Below the pieces are notes generated by a model. That model did not search any database. It worked only from the letters and a program-made list of their open reading frames with translations, and was not told the origin of the DNA. Of a stretch of DNA of 64,000 nt, positions 7,896 to 50,798 are shown piece by piece; positions within the stretch are counted from its first letter, which is position 1; each line of letters starts with the position of its first letter. The position numbers were made by a program, and so were the translations under genes. Source of the stretch: an uncultured Mycoplasmatota bacterium (GTDB lineage: Bacteria; Bacillota_I; Bacilli_A; RF39; UBA660); NCBI GenBank assembly GCA_900549285.1, contig URNW01000002.1:15450-79449 (forward strand), given 5' to 3'.

Positions 7896-8082
7896 ATATC
7901 TTTTTCATTCTTTAATAACTTCTCTTAATATTTGGATTTTTTTAAAGTTATATGTATTAAATCGTCTATTATGTTTATAAGTATATGATTCTTAACTTAA
8001 ACTGAGTTTCTTGTTCTTTTCGTACTCATGATTATATCATTATTTAAATAGGAAAATATATTGCTAATCTTCATAATAAAAA

Positions 8083-8111
8083 TTGAAATTATTTATTATT
8101 TCATGTAAAAT
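8083..8111 (+). promoter_or_regulatory. sigma-A-like promoter of template cassette 1
   Basis: TTGAAA (8083..8088), a 17-nt spacer, then TAAAAT (8106..8111). The predicted start falls at the left inverted repeat (about 8118). Confidence 0.5.
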
Positions 8112-8117
8112 AAATTT

Positions 8118-8402
8118 AGGCTAATCTATTATTATAGGTATGTCTCCGTATAACTTCAACAACGGTAATGCTAACGTGTTCTATGTGAATTCGACTGGCA
8201 ACCTCAACAACAACAACGTGAATTGGACTGAACCAGGTGTGCGCCCAATATCCTTTTAAACTTACTATTTGGCTAAGGCTAAATAAAAAAGCATTAGGAT
8301 ACAAGATTAGCCATTGGGAAACCTAAATATTTGATATTGATATTTTAAATCTTGTATTTAGAATTAGAACAATATCTTTGAGAGAGAATTCTCTCTTTTT
8401 CT
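8118..8402 (+). ncRNA. DGR template-repeat-like non-coding cassette 1 (IR-L, TR1, conserved 3' structured element, terminator)
   Basis: Components in order: IR-L GGCTAATCT (8119..8127); TR1 (8140..8247); a conserved ~75-nt 3' block containing TGGCTAA (8270..8276) and AGATTAGCC (8304..8312); and the terminator AGAGAGAATTCTCTCT plus T-run (8381..8402). A paralogous unit lies at 8986..9279. Confidence 0.6.
8140..8247 (+). repeat. template-repeat-like copy TR1 (AAC/AAT-rich)
   Basis: 108 nt running ATGTCTCCGTATAAC...AACAACAACAAC...GGTGTGCGCCCA. Its ends are identical to the variable segment at 11746..11850. Differences from that segment fall mainly on TR1 adenines. Confidence 0.7.
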
Positions 8403-8613: not shown

Positions 8614-8945
8614 ATGAAAAATCCAATTATTATTCCTGTTAGTCATGAAATAATAAATGAACATGATTTAGAACTAAATATTCTTGCTAATCGTGATTTC
8701 TTCTTTTACTTATGTCAGTCATCAATATAAACTAGTAAAAGATAATCATAATTATTTTGTTGATATTTTACTATTTAATATTGAACTAAATTGTTATGTT
8801 GTAGTTGAATTAAAACTAAGAATTTTAAAGAAGCCCTTTTATAATTAAACAATTGGTATTATTATTTCTAAAGAAAGTGATCAGTTAATAGTTAATTTTG
8901 TCCGAAATGATATGATTATTCCATTAGATTATAAACTGATTAAAT
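8614..8945 (+). pseudogene. decayed DUF1016/YhcG-like PDDEXK nuclease fragment
   Basis: Translated pieces in shifting frames include EHDLELNILANRDFFFYL, HNYFVDILLFNIELNCYVVVELKLRILKK and IGIIISKESDQLIVNFVRNDMIIPLDYKL. These match the C-terminal half of YhcG-type nucleases. Stops and frameshifts are present and the N-terminal half is missing. Confidence 0.55.
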
Positions 8946-8950
8946 CTTTG

Positions 8951-8979
8951 TTGTAATTTTTTTATTATCATCTTATAAT
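8951..8979 (+). promoter_or_regulatory. sigma-A-like promoter of template cassette 2
   Basis: TTGTAA (8951..8956), a 17-nt spacer, then TATAAT (8974..8979). The predicted start falls at the left inverted repeat (about 8986). Confidence 0.55.
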
Positions 8980-8985
8980 AAGATT

Positions 8986-9279
8986 GGTTAATCTAATAAA
9001 TGAAGCATGATGTCTCCGTATAACGTTAACTCTAACGGTAATGCTAACGTGTTCAATGTGTGGTCGGATGGCAACCTCAACAACAACCGCGTGGATAACA
9101 CGAATGGTGTGCGCCCAATATCCTTTTAAACTTATTGTTTGGTTAAGGCTAAATAAAAAAGCATTAGGATACAAGATTAATCATTGGAATATATCCAAAA
9201 TAAATAATGTTGATGTTTTAAATCTTGCATTTAAAACTAATACAATATTAAAAAGTCTCATATTATTGAGGCTTTTTTG
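8986..9279 (+). ncRNA. DGR template-repeat-like non-coding cassette 2 (IR-L, TR2, conserved 3' structured element, terminator)
   Basis: Components in order: IR-L GGTTAATCT (8986..8994); TR2 (9010..9117); a conserved 3' block with TGGTTAA (9140..9146) and AGATTAATC (9174..9182); and the terminator AGTCTCAtattatTGAGGCT plus T-run (9254..9279). Confidence 0.6.
9010..9117 (+). repeat. template-repeat-like copy TR2 (AAC/AAT-rich)
   Basis: 108 nt running ATGTCTCCGTATAACGTTAAC...AACAACAACCGC...GGTGTGCGCCCA. It has the same 10-nt 5' end and 12-nt 3' end as TR1 and the variable segment. Confidence 0.7.
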
Positions 9280-9392
9280 CTAATTAGAATATAATAGTTT
9301 ATATATTGTAGTTTATACTATTAATAAAGATTAAACTACCATCAATAAATAACGATTATTTATTATGGGGTATGATATTAAAAAATACCTTA

Positions 9393-9848
9393 TTATTTAA
9401 GATATTTAGGATCATCCGTTTTACCTAAGAGGTAATCAGCAGATATGTTGTATTTTTTACATATATCATATAAAAATGGCGTTGCTATAATATTTTTACC
9501 TATTTCATAACCACTAATTGTTGATTTTGAATAATGTAAAATACCTGCTAAATCTGCTTGAGTTAAATTATATTTTTTACGTAATTCTTTTAAACGTATC
9601 CCAATTAATTTTTTATTTATTTCTAATCTATAATTAGAATAGTTTTTCATATTTGTAAAGCCAAATATATAATCTAGGGATATATTATAAAGATTAGATA
9701 GTGTATTTAAATGTTTAACAGGAATAATGGTCTCTCCTCGTTCATAATGACCATAGACATTTTTGTGTAAGTTTAAAAAAGTTGATATATCTTTTTGCGT
9801 AAATTTTTTTTCTTCTCTAGCATCTATTAATCTTTTCGTATAAAACAT
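9393..9848 (-). CDS. XRE-family transcriptional regulator with two HTH (Cro/C1-type) domains, copy 1
   Basis: Two HTH_3-like halves (FTQKDISTFLNL...ERGETIIP and LTQADLAGILHYSKSTISGYEIG). Start moved to MFYTKRL behind GGTGG. Paralog of 9984..10439. Confidence 0.8.
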   Translation of the reverse strand: MFYTKRLIDAREEKKFTQKDISTFLNLHKNVYGHYERGETIIPVKHLNTLSNLYNISLDYIFGFTNMKNYSNYRLEINKKLIGIRLKELRKKYNLTQADLAGILHYSKSTISGYEIGKNIIATPFLYDICKKYNISADYLLGKTDDPKYLK

Positions 9849-9921
9849 AAATACCACCATAGAAAAATTTTCTCAAAAGAAATAGAAAAAGTCAGAAATA
9901 AGACTTAATAGCGTTTTTGAT

Positions 9922-9983: not shown

Positions 9984-10439
9984 TCACTTTCTAATATATT
10001 TAGGTTCATCTATTTTACCTAAGAGGTAGTCAGCAGATATATTGTATTTTCTGCATATATCATATAAAAAGGGTGTTGCAATTATCTTTGCCATTCTTTC
10101 ATAATCCCCAATAGTGGATTTACCAACATTTATGCTATCTGCTAATTCTTGCTGGGTTAAACCATATTCATTTCTTAGTTGCTTTAATCTTTCTCTTTGA
10201 AGTTCTTTACTAATAGTAGGAACAGCATTTTTATAATTAAGTACATCACAAAATTCAAAAACATAATCTAAAGATACATTGAAATAATTGCAAACATAAT
10301 TCAAATGTTTAATAGGAATAATAGTTTCTTCACGTTCATAATGTCCATAAACTTCATTTCCTAAACCTAATAACTTGGATATTTCTTTTTGTTTTAAATC
10401 ACATTTAGTTCTAATATCAATAAGTCTTTTCTTATACAT
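9984..10439 (-). CDS. XRE-family transcriptional regulator with two HTH domains, copy 2
   Basis: Same architecture as copy 1 (LKQKEISKLLGL...; LTQQELADSINVGKSTIGDYE), and the C-terminal ATPFLYDICxKYNISADYLLGK is shared. Start at MYKKRL behind GGTGG. Divergent from the target gene. Confidence 0.8.
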   Translation of the reverse strand: MYKKRLIDIRTKCDLKQKEISKLLGLGNEVYGHYEREETIIPIKHLNYVCNYFNVSLDYVFEFCDVLNYKNAVPTISKELQRERLKQLRNEYGLTQQELADSINVGKSTIGDYERMAKIIATPFLYDICRKYNISADYLLGKIDEPKYIRK

Positions 10440-10511
10440 TTTTACCACCATTTTAATTTTCTCAAAAACTTAAATTAAATGTACAATTAAGACTTAATAG
10501 CGTTTTTGTTG

Positions 10512-10569: not shown

Positions 10570-11922
10570 GTGAAAGAGGTTATAAAATTGAAGAAAGATG
10601 GAAGTATAGAATTTGAAACTATTAAATCTCATAAGAATAGATTATACTTTTTGTGTGGAATAGTCTGTGTAGTAGTACTTCTTGTTGTGTTTGTTATAAC
10701 TAGAAGTCATGCTAAGTACCGAACAACAGAATCTATTCCCTTAATAAATGGAACCATTAACTATATACCATATGATTTAAAAATGGTTGCTATGTATCAA
10801 GAAGAAAATGATGGTTATAAAAGTATAGATACAGTACCAACTAGTGGATATGCTTTAAATGAAGAGAAAAGCTATTGTGAAGTAAATGATACAAAAGATG
10901 AAAGCATATCTATGGAATATAAAGATGGAAAAGTATATATAGGAGTAAGTAAAAAAGGAACAAAATGTTACTTGTATTTTGATCAAGAACCAACGGCAAA
11001 AGATACAATATTAGCAAATAATTCTGTTAATAGTGGAACACCAAACTTTAGTCAGGTAGCAACAACGAATGAAGGAGTATATAAAACACAAGATGATTGG
11101 GGAGATAGTTATTACTTTAGAGGGGCTGTAGATAATAACTGGGTTAAATTTGCAGGATTCTATTGGCGAATTATTAGGATCAATGGAGATGGATCTATTA
11201 GATTAATCTATAATGGAACAAGTACAGCAACAACTGGAACAAGTACTCAAATACAAACAAGTACATTTAATAGTTCATATAATGACAATGCACATGTAGG
11301 ATATATGTATGGAAGTACAGGAGCAAATAGTTATGCAGCAACACATGCTAATACTAATAGTAGTACAATCAAAGGGGTATTAGATAATTGGTATCAGACT
11401 AATATAACAAATAAAGGATATGGAAATAAAGTAAGTACAGAAGCAGGATTTTGTGGAGATCGGGAACCAAGTACAAGTACATCAACAAGTAACGGTTCAG
11501 GAGGAACAGGGACAACAACTACATACTATGGCGGAAATATCAGATTAACAAATAGTACAAAATCTCCAATATTAAAATGTAAAAATAGCAGTGATTTATA
11601 TACGGTAAGCGGAAGTAGTAAAGGAAATAAAGCATTATCTAATCCAGTAGGATTAATAACCGCAGATGAAGTAGCTATGGCAGGAGGTGTGTGGGAAACA
11701 ACTAATCAAAGTTATTATCTATATACAGGACAGAATTATTGGCCCATGTCTCCGTCTAACTTTTTCGGCGGTTTTGCTCGCATGCTCTATGTGTCTTCGG
11801 ATGGCACCCTCAGCGTCGTCGGCGTGAATTACGCGCGAGGTGTGCGCCCAGTTATCAATTTACGGTCTGATATTACTATTTTATCTGGTGATGGTACTAG
11901 TTCTAATCCTTATGTTGTTTAA
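10570..11922 (+). CDS. membrane-anchored surface protein with C-terminal DGR-type variable region (putative DGR target)
   Basis: 450-aa ORF from a GTG at 10570; an alternative TTG at 10588 follows AAGAGG. It has an N-terminal TM helix, a conserved core (YYFRGAVDNNWVKFAGFYWRIIRINGDGSIRLIY) and a Ser/Thr/Gly linker. The C-terminal YW-x-SP...GVRPV module contains the GC-rich segment 11746..11850. Paralog of 49054..50349. Confidence 0.75.
   Translation: MKEVIKLKKDGSIEFETIKSHKNRLYFLCGIVCVVVLLVVFVITRSHAKYRTTESIPLINGTINYIPYDLKMVAMYQEENDGYKSIDTVPTSGYALNEEKSYCEVNDTKDESISMEYKDGKVYIGVSKKGTKCYLYFDQEPTAKDTILANNSVNSGTPNFSQVATTNEGVYKTQDDWGDSYYFRGAVDNNWVKFAGFYWRIIRINGDGSIRLIYNGTSTATTGTSTQIQTSTFNSSYNDNAHVGYMYGSTGANSYAATHANTNSSTIKGVLDNWYQTNITNKGYGNKVSTEAGFCGDREPSTSTSTSNGSGGTGTTTTYYGGNIRLTNSTKSPILKCKNSSDLYTVSGSSKGNKALSNPVGLITADEVAMAGGVWETTNQSYYLYTGQNYWPMSPSNFFGGFARMLYVSSDGTLSVVGVNYARGVRPVINLRSDITILSGDGTSSNPYVV
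11746..11850 (+). repeat. variable-repeat-like segment (VR) inside CDS 10570..11922
   Basis: 105 nt running ATGTCTCCGTCTAAC...GGTGTGCGCCCA, about 57% GC by hand count in an AT-rich gene. AAC/AAT codons of TR1/TR2 are replaced by TTC, GGC, TTT, CGC, TCT, ACC, AGC, GTC, GTC and GGC. The shared GC-rich 3' end GGTGTGCGCCCA is IMH-like. Confidence 0.7.
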
Positions 11923-49053: not shown

Positions 49054-50349
49054 TTAAATTTCGTATGGTGTTGAAGCTGATCCATTTCCTGATTTTATTG
49101 CTACATTACTTGAGATGTTGATAACTGGACGGACACCAATTGTGCCATTAATGTAGATTTCTAACGAGCTACTTTCAGATACATAAAACATGTAAGCAAT
49201 ACTTGATTTCGTAGACAGACAAGCTGGAGACAAGGTCCAATAATCTTTACTTGTATATAGATAATAACTTTGATTAGTTTGTCCATATACTCCTCCAGCA
49301 AAAGCTACTTCATCTGCTGTTATTAATCCTACTGGATTAGATAATGCTTTATTTCCTTTACTACTTTCACTTACTGTATATAAATCACTACTATTCTTAC
49401 ATTTTAATGTTGGAGATTTTGTATTATTTACTAATCTGATATATCCTCCGTAGTATGTTTCTGTTGTTCCTGTTCCTCCTGTGCCATTACTTGTTGATGA
49501 ACTTGTACTTGGCTCCCGATCACCACAAAATCCTGCTTCTGTACTTACTTTACTTCCATGCCCTTTATTTGCTATATTAGTTTGATACCAACTATCTAAT
49601 ACGCCTTTGATTGTACTACTGCTTCCAAGTCCATGAACTTGATAATTTGTGTACATATATCCTACATACATGTTATTATTGTAAGAATTATTAAATACAC
49701 TTGTACTTATTTGTGTGTTTGTTCCAGTTGTAGCTGTACTTGTTCCATTATAGATTAATCTAATAGATCCATCTCCATTAATTCTGATAATCCTCCAGTA
49801 GTATCCTGCAAATTTTACCCAGTTATTAGTTACTGCCCCTCTAAAGTAATAACTATCTCCCCAGTCATCCTCTGCTTTATATACTCCATCATTCGTTGTT
49901 GCTACGCTTGCAAAATTTGGATTTTCACTATTGATTTGATTATCTCTCTTGATAGCATCTGCTAATAATATTTTTTGTTCATCAAAATACAAATAACATT
50001 TTGTCCCTTTCTTAGTCATTGGTGTTACAGTTAAAGTTTTGCTTTCACTATCATAACTTAACTTAATATTATTATCTTTTTCATTATTTATTGTACAATA
50101 AGATTCACTCGTTAACTCATAATTTCCATCAGGTAAAGTATCGACTTCTCTTCCATCTACTTTTATTGCTACTATATTTAAATCAGCTAAACTATAATTA
50201 ATGGTTCCATTCACAAGTGGGATAGACTCTGTATTTTTAAATTTTGCTCTAGTAAAAGTTAAAATAATTGCACTAATAATCGCTACTAATACCACAGCTA
50301 TTACAATATTTCTTGTTAAATGGCTTTTCTTTAAAGTTTCTATTTCCAT
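49054..50349 (-). CDS. membrane-anchored surface protein, undiversified paralog of 10570..11922
   Basis: Same architecture and a highly similar core (YYFRGAVTNNWVKFAGYYWRIIRINGDGSIRLIYNGTSTATTGT). The C-terminal module YWTLSPACLSTKSSIAYMFYVSESSSLEIYINGTIGVRPVINI is AT-rich with no TR-like flanks. Start at MEIETLKK behind GAGGGAAAGG. Confidence 0.75.
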   Translation of the reverse strand: MEIETLKKSHLTRNIVIAVVLVAIISAIILTFTRAKFKNTESIPLVNGTINYSLADLNIVAIKVDGREVDTLPDGNYELTSESYCTINNEKDNNIKLSYDSESKTLTVTPMTKKGTKCYLYFDEQKILLADAIKRDNQINSENPNFASVATTNDGVYKAEDDWGDSYYFRGAVTNNWVKFAGYYWRIIRINGDGSIRLIYNGTSTATTGTNTQISTSVFNNSYNNNMYVGYMYTNYQVHGLGSSSTIKGVLDSWYQTNIANKGHGSKVSTEAGFCGDREPSTSSSTSNGTGGTGTTETYYGGYIRLVNNTKSPTLKCKNSSDLYTVSESSKGNKALSNPVGLITADEVAFAGGVYGQTNQSYYLYTSKDYWTLSPACLSTKSSIAYMFYVSESSSLEIYINGTIGVRPVINISSNVAIKSGNGSASTPYEI

Positions 50350-50798
50350 CCTTTCCCTCTTTTCTTGTGAATCATAACATACTTTTAGACTTATTACATG
50401 CAATTCGACAAAATTTTTCAAAACTTGTCAATATTATTATCGTATAATTATCTATGTTATATTTCTAGTATACATTATTATTGAGTATTAATCAACAATA
50501 ATGTTACTATTTTGGTATTTGAATTATTTTTAAATAAAAATATAAAGTTTACTAATCCTATTGATTTGATAGATGAAATATTATTAAAGGTTAACGGAAA
50601 GCTATCGATTTTACTAATGAAATTAATTAAATTAGCCATTTGCTTTTTTTCTTTCTTTTTTATATAGTGATGTTAGAAAGGAAGGAAAAGAAATGTTATG
50701 AATTATTTATTACATTAGAGAAATGATAAAATATTGAATAAATTTTCTATTATGTATGATTTGAAAAATTAAGTTTTTATTATGGGGAGGGTTATAAG

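Follow-up and report, generated by a model that had tools for sequence, protein, structure and literature searches.

A 64,000-nucleotide stretch of contig URNW01000002.1, from an uncultured Mycoplasmatota bacterium (assembly GCA_900549285.1; this whole stretch is called 'the window' below), carries three copies of one repeat in an arrangement reminiscent of a diversity-generating retroelement (DGR), and the question it raises is what wrote the copy that lies inside a gene. That copy, the variable repeat (VR), falls near the 3′-end of an open reading frame (ORF) for a 450-residue membrane-anchored protein, while the other two, the template repeats TR1 and TR2, are adenine-rich and lie upstream. 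The VR is not derivable from TR1 or TR2 through adenine changes alone.

The three copies share the ends ATGTCTCCG...GGTGTGCGCCCA, begin at positions 8140, 9010 and 11746 with no fourth copy in the window, and form G+C-rich islands in DNA of 26.5% G+C (Table 1). In a codon alignment, 22 of the 32 adenines of TR1 but 8 of its 73 other bases are changed in the VR (Fisher P = 5.6e-9), and for TR2 the figures are 18 of 28 and 11 of 77 (P = 1.5e-6), with one codon indel in each comparison. The adenine bias is thus significant in both pairings when put to the formal mismatch test that the first-pass annotation of this DNA had proposed, and the 8 and 11 non-adenine mismatches, together with the indels, bear out its claim that neither resident template is the donor. 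The share of substitutions that fall at adenines is 73% for TR1 and 62% for TR2, and neither resident pair passes a strict DGR criterion.

The VR combines features of both templates. At 105 nt it is 3 nt shorter than either, lacking both the additional codon that TR2 has near its 5′-end and the one that TR1 has near its 3′-end, and its spacing is of the TR1 type at the 5′-end and of the TR2 type at the 3′-end, the mosaic of lengths that had been described from a first reading. Seventeen sites are informative, 10 compatible with TR1 only and 7 with TR2 only, and two further codons, atg and ctc (gtg and ttc in both templates), match neither, again as described. Codon 6 (ttt) is itself split, its first base being TR1-only and its third TR2-only. 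The best single break, between aligned codons 29 and 30, is marginal (Fisher P = 0.035; permutation P = 0.08). Two details of the earlier reading need correction: the tat at codon 15, taken as a mark of TR1, does not discriminate, as the aat of TR2 reaches tat by a permitted adenine change, and tac gcg cga differs from aac acg aat at five positions rather than six, four of them adenines.

The repeat family and its template RNA genes

The repeat belongs to a large family found in gut bacteria. We scanned one-genome-per-species bacterial assemblies with a two-ends pattern that required ATG at the repeat start, so that template counts per genome are lower bounds, and obtained more than 114 matches. 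Those listed come, several to a genome, from gut bacteria named as 'uncultured Bacilli', Mycoplasma sp. CAG:776 or Candidatus Caccenecus. In the family comparison, drawn from about 30 related gut Bacilli genomes, the copies split into two clean classes: 95 adenine-poor copies at the end of ORFs of ~300–650 codons, followed by AGTAATAAATCTGAA, and 27 adenine-rich copies outside ORFs (57 under looser criteria), followed by AATATCCTTTTAAAC. At the 19 columns where at least 80% of templates have adenine, 51% of VR cells are changed (400 to G, 335 to T, 185 to C), as against 3.6% at the 21 columns with a non-adenine base invariant across templates, which is the DGR signature at the scale of a family. 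The 3′ boundary GGTGTGCGCCCA is identical across all templates and VRs, and just past it the sequences diverge into AATATCC in templates and AGTWATMAAT in VRs, a putative boundary of the IMH*/IMH (initiation of mutagenic homing) kind. No hairpin was found directly downstream of the VR.

Within this family an imperfect match is the rule. None of the 95 VRs has a perfect donor among the 57 templates, and 15 of the 95 deviate at two or more of the invariant non-adenine columns; the two deviations of the window VR, atg and ctc, which fall at columns invariant in 27 of 27 templates of the first set, therefore lie within the family background. Both points had escaped the first-pass annotation, as had the lack of correspondence between adjacency and pairing described below. 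The majority consensus of 48 templates is a better donor than either neighbour: read directly against it, the VR has three non-adenine mismatches (atg, ctc and the last base of cga) and no indel, as against 5–11 mismatches plus an indel. This consensus, a member of the 105-nt class, reads TTT at codon 6 and AAC ACG nnT at its 3′-end, and templates that join a TR1-like 5′ spacing to an AAC ACG NNN 3′-end occur in relatives (L044, L086). The VR of a paralog in the same genome (P0173) agrees with the window VR in length class and in codons 6 (ttt) and 19 (gat). The 105-nt intermediate template that had been predicted thus has a real architecture, and is indeed the commonest type in the family, but the exact donor was not found.

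The templates themselves are predicted to be transcribed as free-standing structured RNA genes of ~280 nt, each with its own promoter-like and terminator-like sites. Some 140 nt 3′ of each template are conserved between the TR1 and TR2 copies. The TR1 gene has a promoter-like TTGAAA-17-TAAAAT (8083–8111), a leader GGCTAATCT (8119–8127), a structured tail (8236–8379; tail profile E = 3e-40) and a terminator hairpin (8380–8397), and the TR2 gene has TTGTAA-17-TATAAT (8951–8979), a leader GGTTAATCT (8986–8994), a structured tail (9106–9249) and a weak hairpin with a T run (~9249–9280). Across the family, 48 distinct cassettes align through a −10 box, the leader GGYTAATCT, the template, a ~140-nt tail and a terminator, and RNAalifold with direct pair counting yields a common fold of six helices and 42 pairs. 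Paired cells amount to 97.4%, as against 37–43% when the partners are slid, and 30 of the 42 pairs show compensatory changes, a level that none of 500 shuffles attained. In helix 1 the leader pairs with AGATTARYC in the tail and thereby encloses the template; in helix 2 the AATATCC directly after the template pairs with GGATA in the tail. The template RNA genes are accordingly under selection. No Rfam family matches them. In relatives they also form tandem arrays of two or three cassettes (L056 5959–6861, L068 3370–4878, L088 4409–6313).

Two observations concern the surroundings of these genes. First, in two relatives (L025, L081) ORFs with prepilin-type signal sequences (MNKKGFTLIELL, MRQGFALLETMIV) lie downstream of template genes. 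Second, a nuclease gene of the YhcG type (PD-(D/E)XK; Pfam YhcG_C, E = 1e-11) survives as a stretch of 54 codons at positions 8684–8848 (+), between the two template genes of the window, which suggests that this spacer is decayed coding sequence.

A third template was sought both inside and outside the window. In the window the tail profile recovers the TR1 and TR2 copies only. The window clone is present in sample 3300029700 of the Joint Genome Institute (JGI; 99.995–100% identity to the window), and another contig of that sample (L158) carries a third template gene. Its template, of 117 nt, is excluded as donor of the window VR by 18 non-adenine mismatches and 12 nt of gaps, and it has 20 non-adenine mismatches to the VR that neighbours it. 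No combination of the three templates with the four VRs of this genome is clean, the best being TR1 with the window VR. The third template has TTG for CCG at its third codon, only four AAC codons and a compensated change in helix 2 (ATATCT with AAGATA), and the VR beside it (11170–11290) has lost the GGTGTGCGCCC boundary (AGTGTACGTCC); this looks like a template–VR pair in decay whose RNA fold has been kept. In the metagenome collection we found no match to a strict donor pattern (A allowed at every non-A base of the VR, followed by AATAT), a weak negative because the collection apparently lacks this species: the tail pattern, which is exact for the window templates, returned only relatives of 80–94% identity.

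Elsewhere in the family, templates and VRs do pair at a distance. Trans pairing is real, since one template and one VR on different contigs of a single metagenome-assembled genome (MAG; L026/L094) form a near-perfect pair with 16 adenine changes and one other. TR2, too, has 3–4 non-adenine mismatches and no gap against VRs on other scaffolds of relatives (three against the L089 VR of Mycoplasma sp. CAG:776, among the VRs closest to TR2), a better fit than to the VR next to it, and adjacency therefore does not amount to pairing.

Origin of the window's variable repeat

The VR is invariant in the population sampled. Five independent assemblies of the clone share it without a difference, as do more than 100 independent contigs. 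Within the protein cluster at 90% identity, 90 contigs carry the main allele, and 12 further full-length variants differ outside the VR only. The sole exception (P0248) has residues 369–409 replaced, a stretch that takes in 24 residues upstream of the VR and so points to gene conversion from a paralog, not to retrohoming. Similarly, in nine other ortholog groups the VR is fixed amid scattered strain differences elsewhere, and the rare divergent VRs are exact copies of the VR of another paralog, usually with its flanks (P0360 is an example). At the level of assembled sequences we thus see no ongoing VR hypervariability of the kind by which DGRs are recognized. Among 270 family proteins, with the homologs of the target covered by the best 120 of at least 7930, none has a VR of the TR1 or TR2 type.

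Templates also recombine. In one strain (L116), 4 of 1683 positions differ from the window between 8248 and 9930 (99.8% identity), whereas TR1 itself differs at 21 positions and the leader and promoter before it at 24 (window 8072–8247); the breakpoint of this swap is the conserved template 3′-end, and the incoming cassette, of a different type and 110 nt long, resembles the VR of paralog P0355. Recombination was observed from VR to VR and from cassette to cassette only, and no VR equals a segment of a cassette. Among the 48 templates, columns with an adenine consensus deviate in 23% of cells, as against 8.9% elsewhere (Mann–Whitney P = 4e-7), with a replacement spectrum of G > T > C, the same as in VRs; this is compatible with relaxed constraint at variable codons, with back-conversion from VRs or with mis-homing into templates. 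The suggestion of the first-pass annotation that templates have been rewritten gains from this deviation and from the TR1 swap, but not from the difference between TR1 and TR2 on which it had drawn, where the pairwise adenine bias is not significant (P = 0.10 and 0.67).

No reverse transcriptase (RT) was found in the window (YxDD motif scan), within 10 kb beyond either of its ends, in ~200 kb from this species, or anywhere in the 1.4 Mb surveyed altogether, including the surroundings of ~60 templates and ~100 VRs (motif scans, and phmmer --max with Brt of phage BPP-1; Brt and Avd queries from AY029185). For Avd, phmmer --max returned nothing below E = 0.4 in the same 1.4 Mb, a single-sequence search being weak for so small and divergent a protein, and when Brt was used to search protein sequences the matches were Brt-like proteins only, none of them pointing to this lineage. 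The RT is not encoded in cis at any locus surveyed; the enzyme may be remote. Viral contigs contain neither the pattern of the template tail nor that of the VR, and blastn and tblastn against phage genomes gave no match to the repeats or to the target protein.

We think it probable, if with moderate confidence, that the VR is a relic of DGR-type adenine-mutagenic retrohoming whose source, acting in trans, was neither TR1 nor TR2 but a consensus-like template of the 105-nt class, and that VR and source were later uncoupled. The likely order of events would begin with a consensus-like member of the free-standing, multi-copy template family writing the VR in trans, the writing having presumably been done by an RT that is encoded elsewhere or has since been lost. 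The VR would then have become fixed as rewriting stopped, and would have gained two or three point changes (atg, ctc and the last base of cga), while cassette and paralog recombination would have removed or altered the donor; such reshuffling would explain why no present template of the genome matches the VR. TR1 and TR2 are most economically read as non-cognate members of the family. Of the two options first offered for the missing donor, a third template or a fossil state, the first is right in that a third template gene exists but wrong in that it is not the donor, and the evidence leans toward the fossil, because more than 100 contigs carry one and the same VR, the genome holds no clean pair and TR1 has been swapped by recombination.

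Several points weigh against this reading. Retrohoming is here inferred from its footprint, with neither RT nor Avd found in 1.4 Mb, and the ~200 kb surveyed of this species leave room for a perfect donor elsewhere in the genome. The assemblies with identical VRs are near-clonal (99.95–100% identity) and so sample a short time, and consensus assemblies conceal minority VR variants. It is also awkward for a purely dead relic that the conserved and covarying template RNAs speak for a system still at work on evolutionary time scales.

The VR could instead be a true chimera of TR1 and TR2, made by successive retrohoming (the full length from TR1, then the 3′ part from TR2), by template switching of the RT between the two RNAs, or by DNA gene conversion between paralogous VRs that different templates had written. 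This species offers direct examples of conversion between the VRs of paralogs (P0248, P0360), and on either side of the break at aligned codons 29/30 the 5′ block is TR1-compatible at 9 of 11 informative sites and the 3′ block TR2-compatible at 5 of 6. However, the division into blocks loses significance once corrected (permutation P = 0.08), codons 6 and 20 hold sites of the TR2 type that require further switches, and three non-adenine sites match neither template, whereas a single consensus-like donor covers everything in fewer steps. Moreover, the ttt of codon 6 and the gat of codon 19 recur together in another VR of the genome that TR1 and TR2 do not explain either, and we regard a chimera as unlikely.

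We also doubt that the system is live, with a cognate template elsewhere in the genome still rewriting the VR while TR1 and TR2 serve remote targets. In favour of such a system are trans pairing within the family (L026/L094), a better fit of TR2 to VRs on relatives' other scaffolds than to its neighbour, at least one third template gene on another contig of the genome, arrays of up to three templates in relatives and purifying selection on the template RNAs. Yet the VR does not vary across its more than 100 contigs, the third template is not its donor, clean pairs number zero in the genome and perfect ones zero among 95 VRs and 57 templates, atg and ctc sit at columns invariant in all 27 first-set templates, and the search for a strict donor, though weakly informative, came back empty. 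It is very improbable that no retroelement was involved, with A-rich cassettes as silent DNA donors in the manner of pilS or vls and the adenine pattern a product of composition or selection: the lack of an RT in 1.4 Mb and the frequent recombination among family members would suit this, but the differences are concentrated 14-fold at template adenines and run to all three other bases, which recombination cannot yield, the repeat is enclosed in a covarying RNA fold with promoter-like and terminator-like sites, AAC-rich templates and C-terminal VRs in DUF6273 proteins are DGR hallmarks, and no VR copies a cassette.

Beyond the relic that we favour for this one VR, a wider and distinctly more tentative proposal is that in this lineage of low-G+C gut Bacilli the family as a whole might be a distributed, many-to-many DGR, in which template RNA genes, single or in tandem arrays, are used in trans on many DUF6273 surface-protein paralogs and in which adenine-diversified templates and mosaic VRs are normal. 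It would comprise a dozen or so targets with one homing boundary and an RT that is far away or only occasionally supplied, and its templates might be diversified by mis-homing or by back-conversion from VRs, so that the repertoire itself evolves.

The target protein and its surroundings

The target protein consists of an N-terminal membrane helix, a large beta-rich ectodomain and a DUF6273-like C-terminal end that carries the VR, which stops 24 codons before the end of the ORF. Positions 126–171 of the 172 of Pfam DUF6273 match residues 383–432 (E = 0.03, below threshold), and in homologs the domain is found above threshold (E = 1e-7 and 2e-6). Described DGR targets include DUF6273, a C-type-lectin-like domain whose C-terminal end holds the VR (PMC11792537, PMC10743442), and the place of the window VR, at the C-terminal end of the DUF6273-like domain, is that expected of a DGR target. 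An AlphaFold model of the protein (predicted local distance difference test, pLDDT, 84.6) matches phage DUF6273 and receptor-binding proteins in the BFVD at a Foldseek probability of 1.0; a fold search of the PDB with the same model gave nothing significant. The target has at least 7930 homologs, and an exact look-up of the 450-residue product found no match because gene callers use another start codon.

Table 1. Coordinates of the repeats, template RNA genes, target gene and neighbouring genes; positions refer to the window unless another contig is named.
Feature	Position	Strand	Description
VR	11746–11850	+	105 nt, codons 393–427 of the 450-aa target; G+C-rich, 12% A
TR1	8140–8247	+	108 nt, 31% A, 9 AAC codons, outside any ORF
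TR2	9010–9117	+	108 nt, 28% A, 9 AAC codons, outside any ORF
TR1 RNA gene (predicted)	8083–8397	+	Promoter/terminator scan, tail profile, covariation over 48 cassettes
TR2 RNA gene (predicted)	8951–9280	+	Promoter/terminator scan, tail profile, covariation over 48 cassettes
Third template gene	L158 8760–9040		Other contig of JGI sample 3300029700; beside XRE gene and target paralog
Target gene	10570–11922	+	450 aa (444 aa from alternative start 10588)
XRE-family double helix-turn-helix protein	9393–9860	−	155 aa; Pfam HTH_3, HTH_19
Second XRE-family paralog	9984–10451	−	155 aa; repeat D1, 76% identical to first; directly upstream of, and divergent from, target
Target paralog	49054–50421	−	455 aa; VR-equivalent stretch A+T-rich

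An XRE-family gene stands head-to-head with nearly every target paralog examined (L145, L153, L157, L158, L159, L161), and in the window this gene and the region upstream of it form a tandem duplication (repeats D1, D4, D13). The XRE-family protein may specifically regulate the target genes or the template genes. The window also takes in the replication origin region (dnaA, dnaN, gyrB, gyrA), and the host is a spore-forming low-G+C bacterium. The target gene and the paralog at 49054–50421 are inverted on either side of dnaA. We take that paralog for an undiversified family member because its VR-equivalent stretch is A+T-rich in the alignment (LSPACLSTKSSIAYMFYVSESSSLEIYINGTIGVRP, a sequence that is the fixed allele of cluster 9) and lacks the template-type composition.

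The paralogs also appear at points of rearrangement. In MAG GCA_938010595.1 a fusion joins the window target to an N-terminus and upstream context that belong to the locus of another paralog (L140), and two assemblies of the paralog P0328 (L161 and L162) differ in everything upstream of the XRE gene. Target paralogs seem to mediate chromosome rearrangements, assembly chimeras being the alternative. In a strain of 98.5% identity (L134 1085–2428), the first ~140 residues of the target are unchanged and the remaining 300 are swapped for those of a different paralog with an A+T-rich, undiversified C-terminus.

Comparison with known systems

The closest points of reference are DGRs. As in the DGR of BPP-1 (mtd with its VR, avd, TR, spacer RNA and brt), an A-rich, AAC-laden, non-coding template is matched by a VR at the C-terminal end of its target with mismatches mainly at adenines, homology ends in a common G+C-rich 3′-end (GGTGTGCGCCCA), and the template lies inside a structured RNA whose 3′ domain pairs beside the template end. 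In BPP-1 (AY029185), however, all parts of the DGR lie within 3 kb, whereas here the 8 kb upstream of the templates and the 52 kb downstream hold neither RT nor Avd, and neither do the surroundings of ~60 templates in relatives. Moreover, each template here is predicted to be a gene in its own right, with a promoter and a terminator, and a genome holds several of them, sometimes in tandem; the match of VR to template is imperfect, the VR is not variable today, and no hairpin follows it directly.

Remote targets and action in trans are known from other DGRs (PMC5758913). The DGR of Treponema denticola is, like this one, chromosomal, with many scattered targets served in trans, and isolates without RT and TR retain VRs, described as 'leftovers', whose differences from known templates fall mostly at adenines (PMC4891356); there, however, a single template lies beside the RT, unlike the conserved, multi-gene template RNA family here, in whose vicinity no RT was found. 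Thiohalocapsa PB-PSB1 has seven complete DGR loci, each with its own RT, whose targets are conflict-system sensors, and some of its VRs match the template of another locus, some match none perfectly and some of its targets are invariable (PMC10907252). The family described here shares with it several templates per genome, their use in trans, VRs without a perfect match and invariable targets, but no RT was found beside its templates, and its targets are DUF6273 surface proteins. Phage DGR targets with DUF6273 include those of Faecalibacterium prophages (PMC11792537) and the tentaclins (PMC10743442). These are of the same C-type-lectin-like domain class with the VR at the C-terminal end, and phage proteins of this kind give the best structural matches to our model; the targets here differ in being cellular, membrane-anchored paralogs beside housekeeping genes, with no match in phage or viral collections.

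Silent-cassette systems offer a different parallel. In pilE/pilS of Neisseria and vlsE of Borrelia, antigenic variation proceeds from multi-copy silent cassettes through homologous recombination and yields mosaic variable regions. In the family described here, too, segments move between copies by recombination, giving mosaics and rearrangements, but its cassettes are structured RNAs, predicted to be transcribed, and the differences between copy and target are adenine-specific, pointing to reverse transcription.

In the DGR literature that we searched, we found no description of template RNA genes that are free-standing, multi-copy and structurally conserved and that all lack an adjacent RT. 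Systems of this sort would be missed or mis-paired by DGR finders whose first step is an RT and whose second is a template nearby, and as recombination among templates and targets can erase the correspondence of TR and VR, caution is due in calling activity from sequence matches. If no RT exists, conserved template RNAs without an enzyme need explaining in themselves; if one is found, these ~280-nt RNAs would be a natural test bed for template recognition in trans. The mismatch between the window VR and its neighbours is, taken alone, ordinary, as earlier work has recorded both leftover targets and VRs that lack a perfect template. It is the setting that matters: DGR templates that appear as independent, conserved, multi-copy RNA genes, away from any detected RT and across many genera of gut bacteria.

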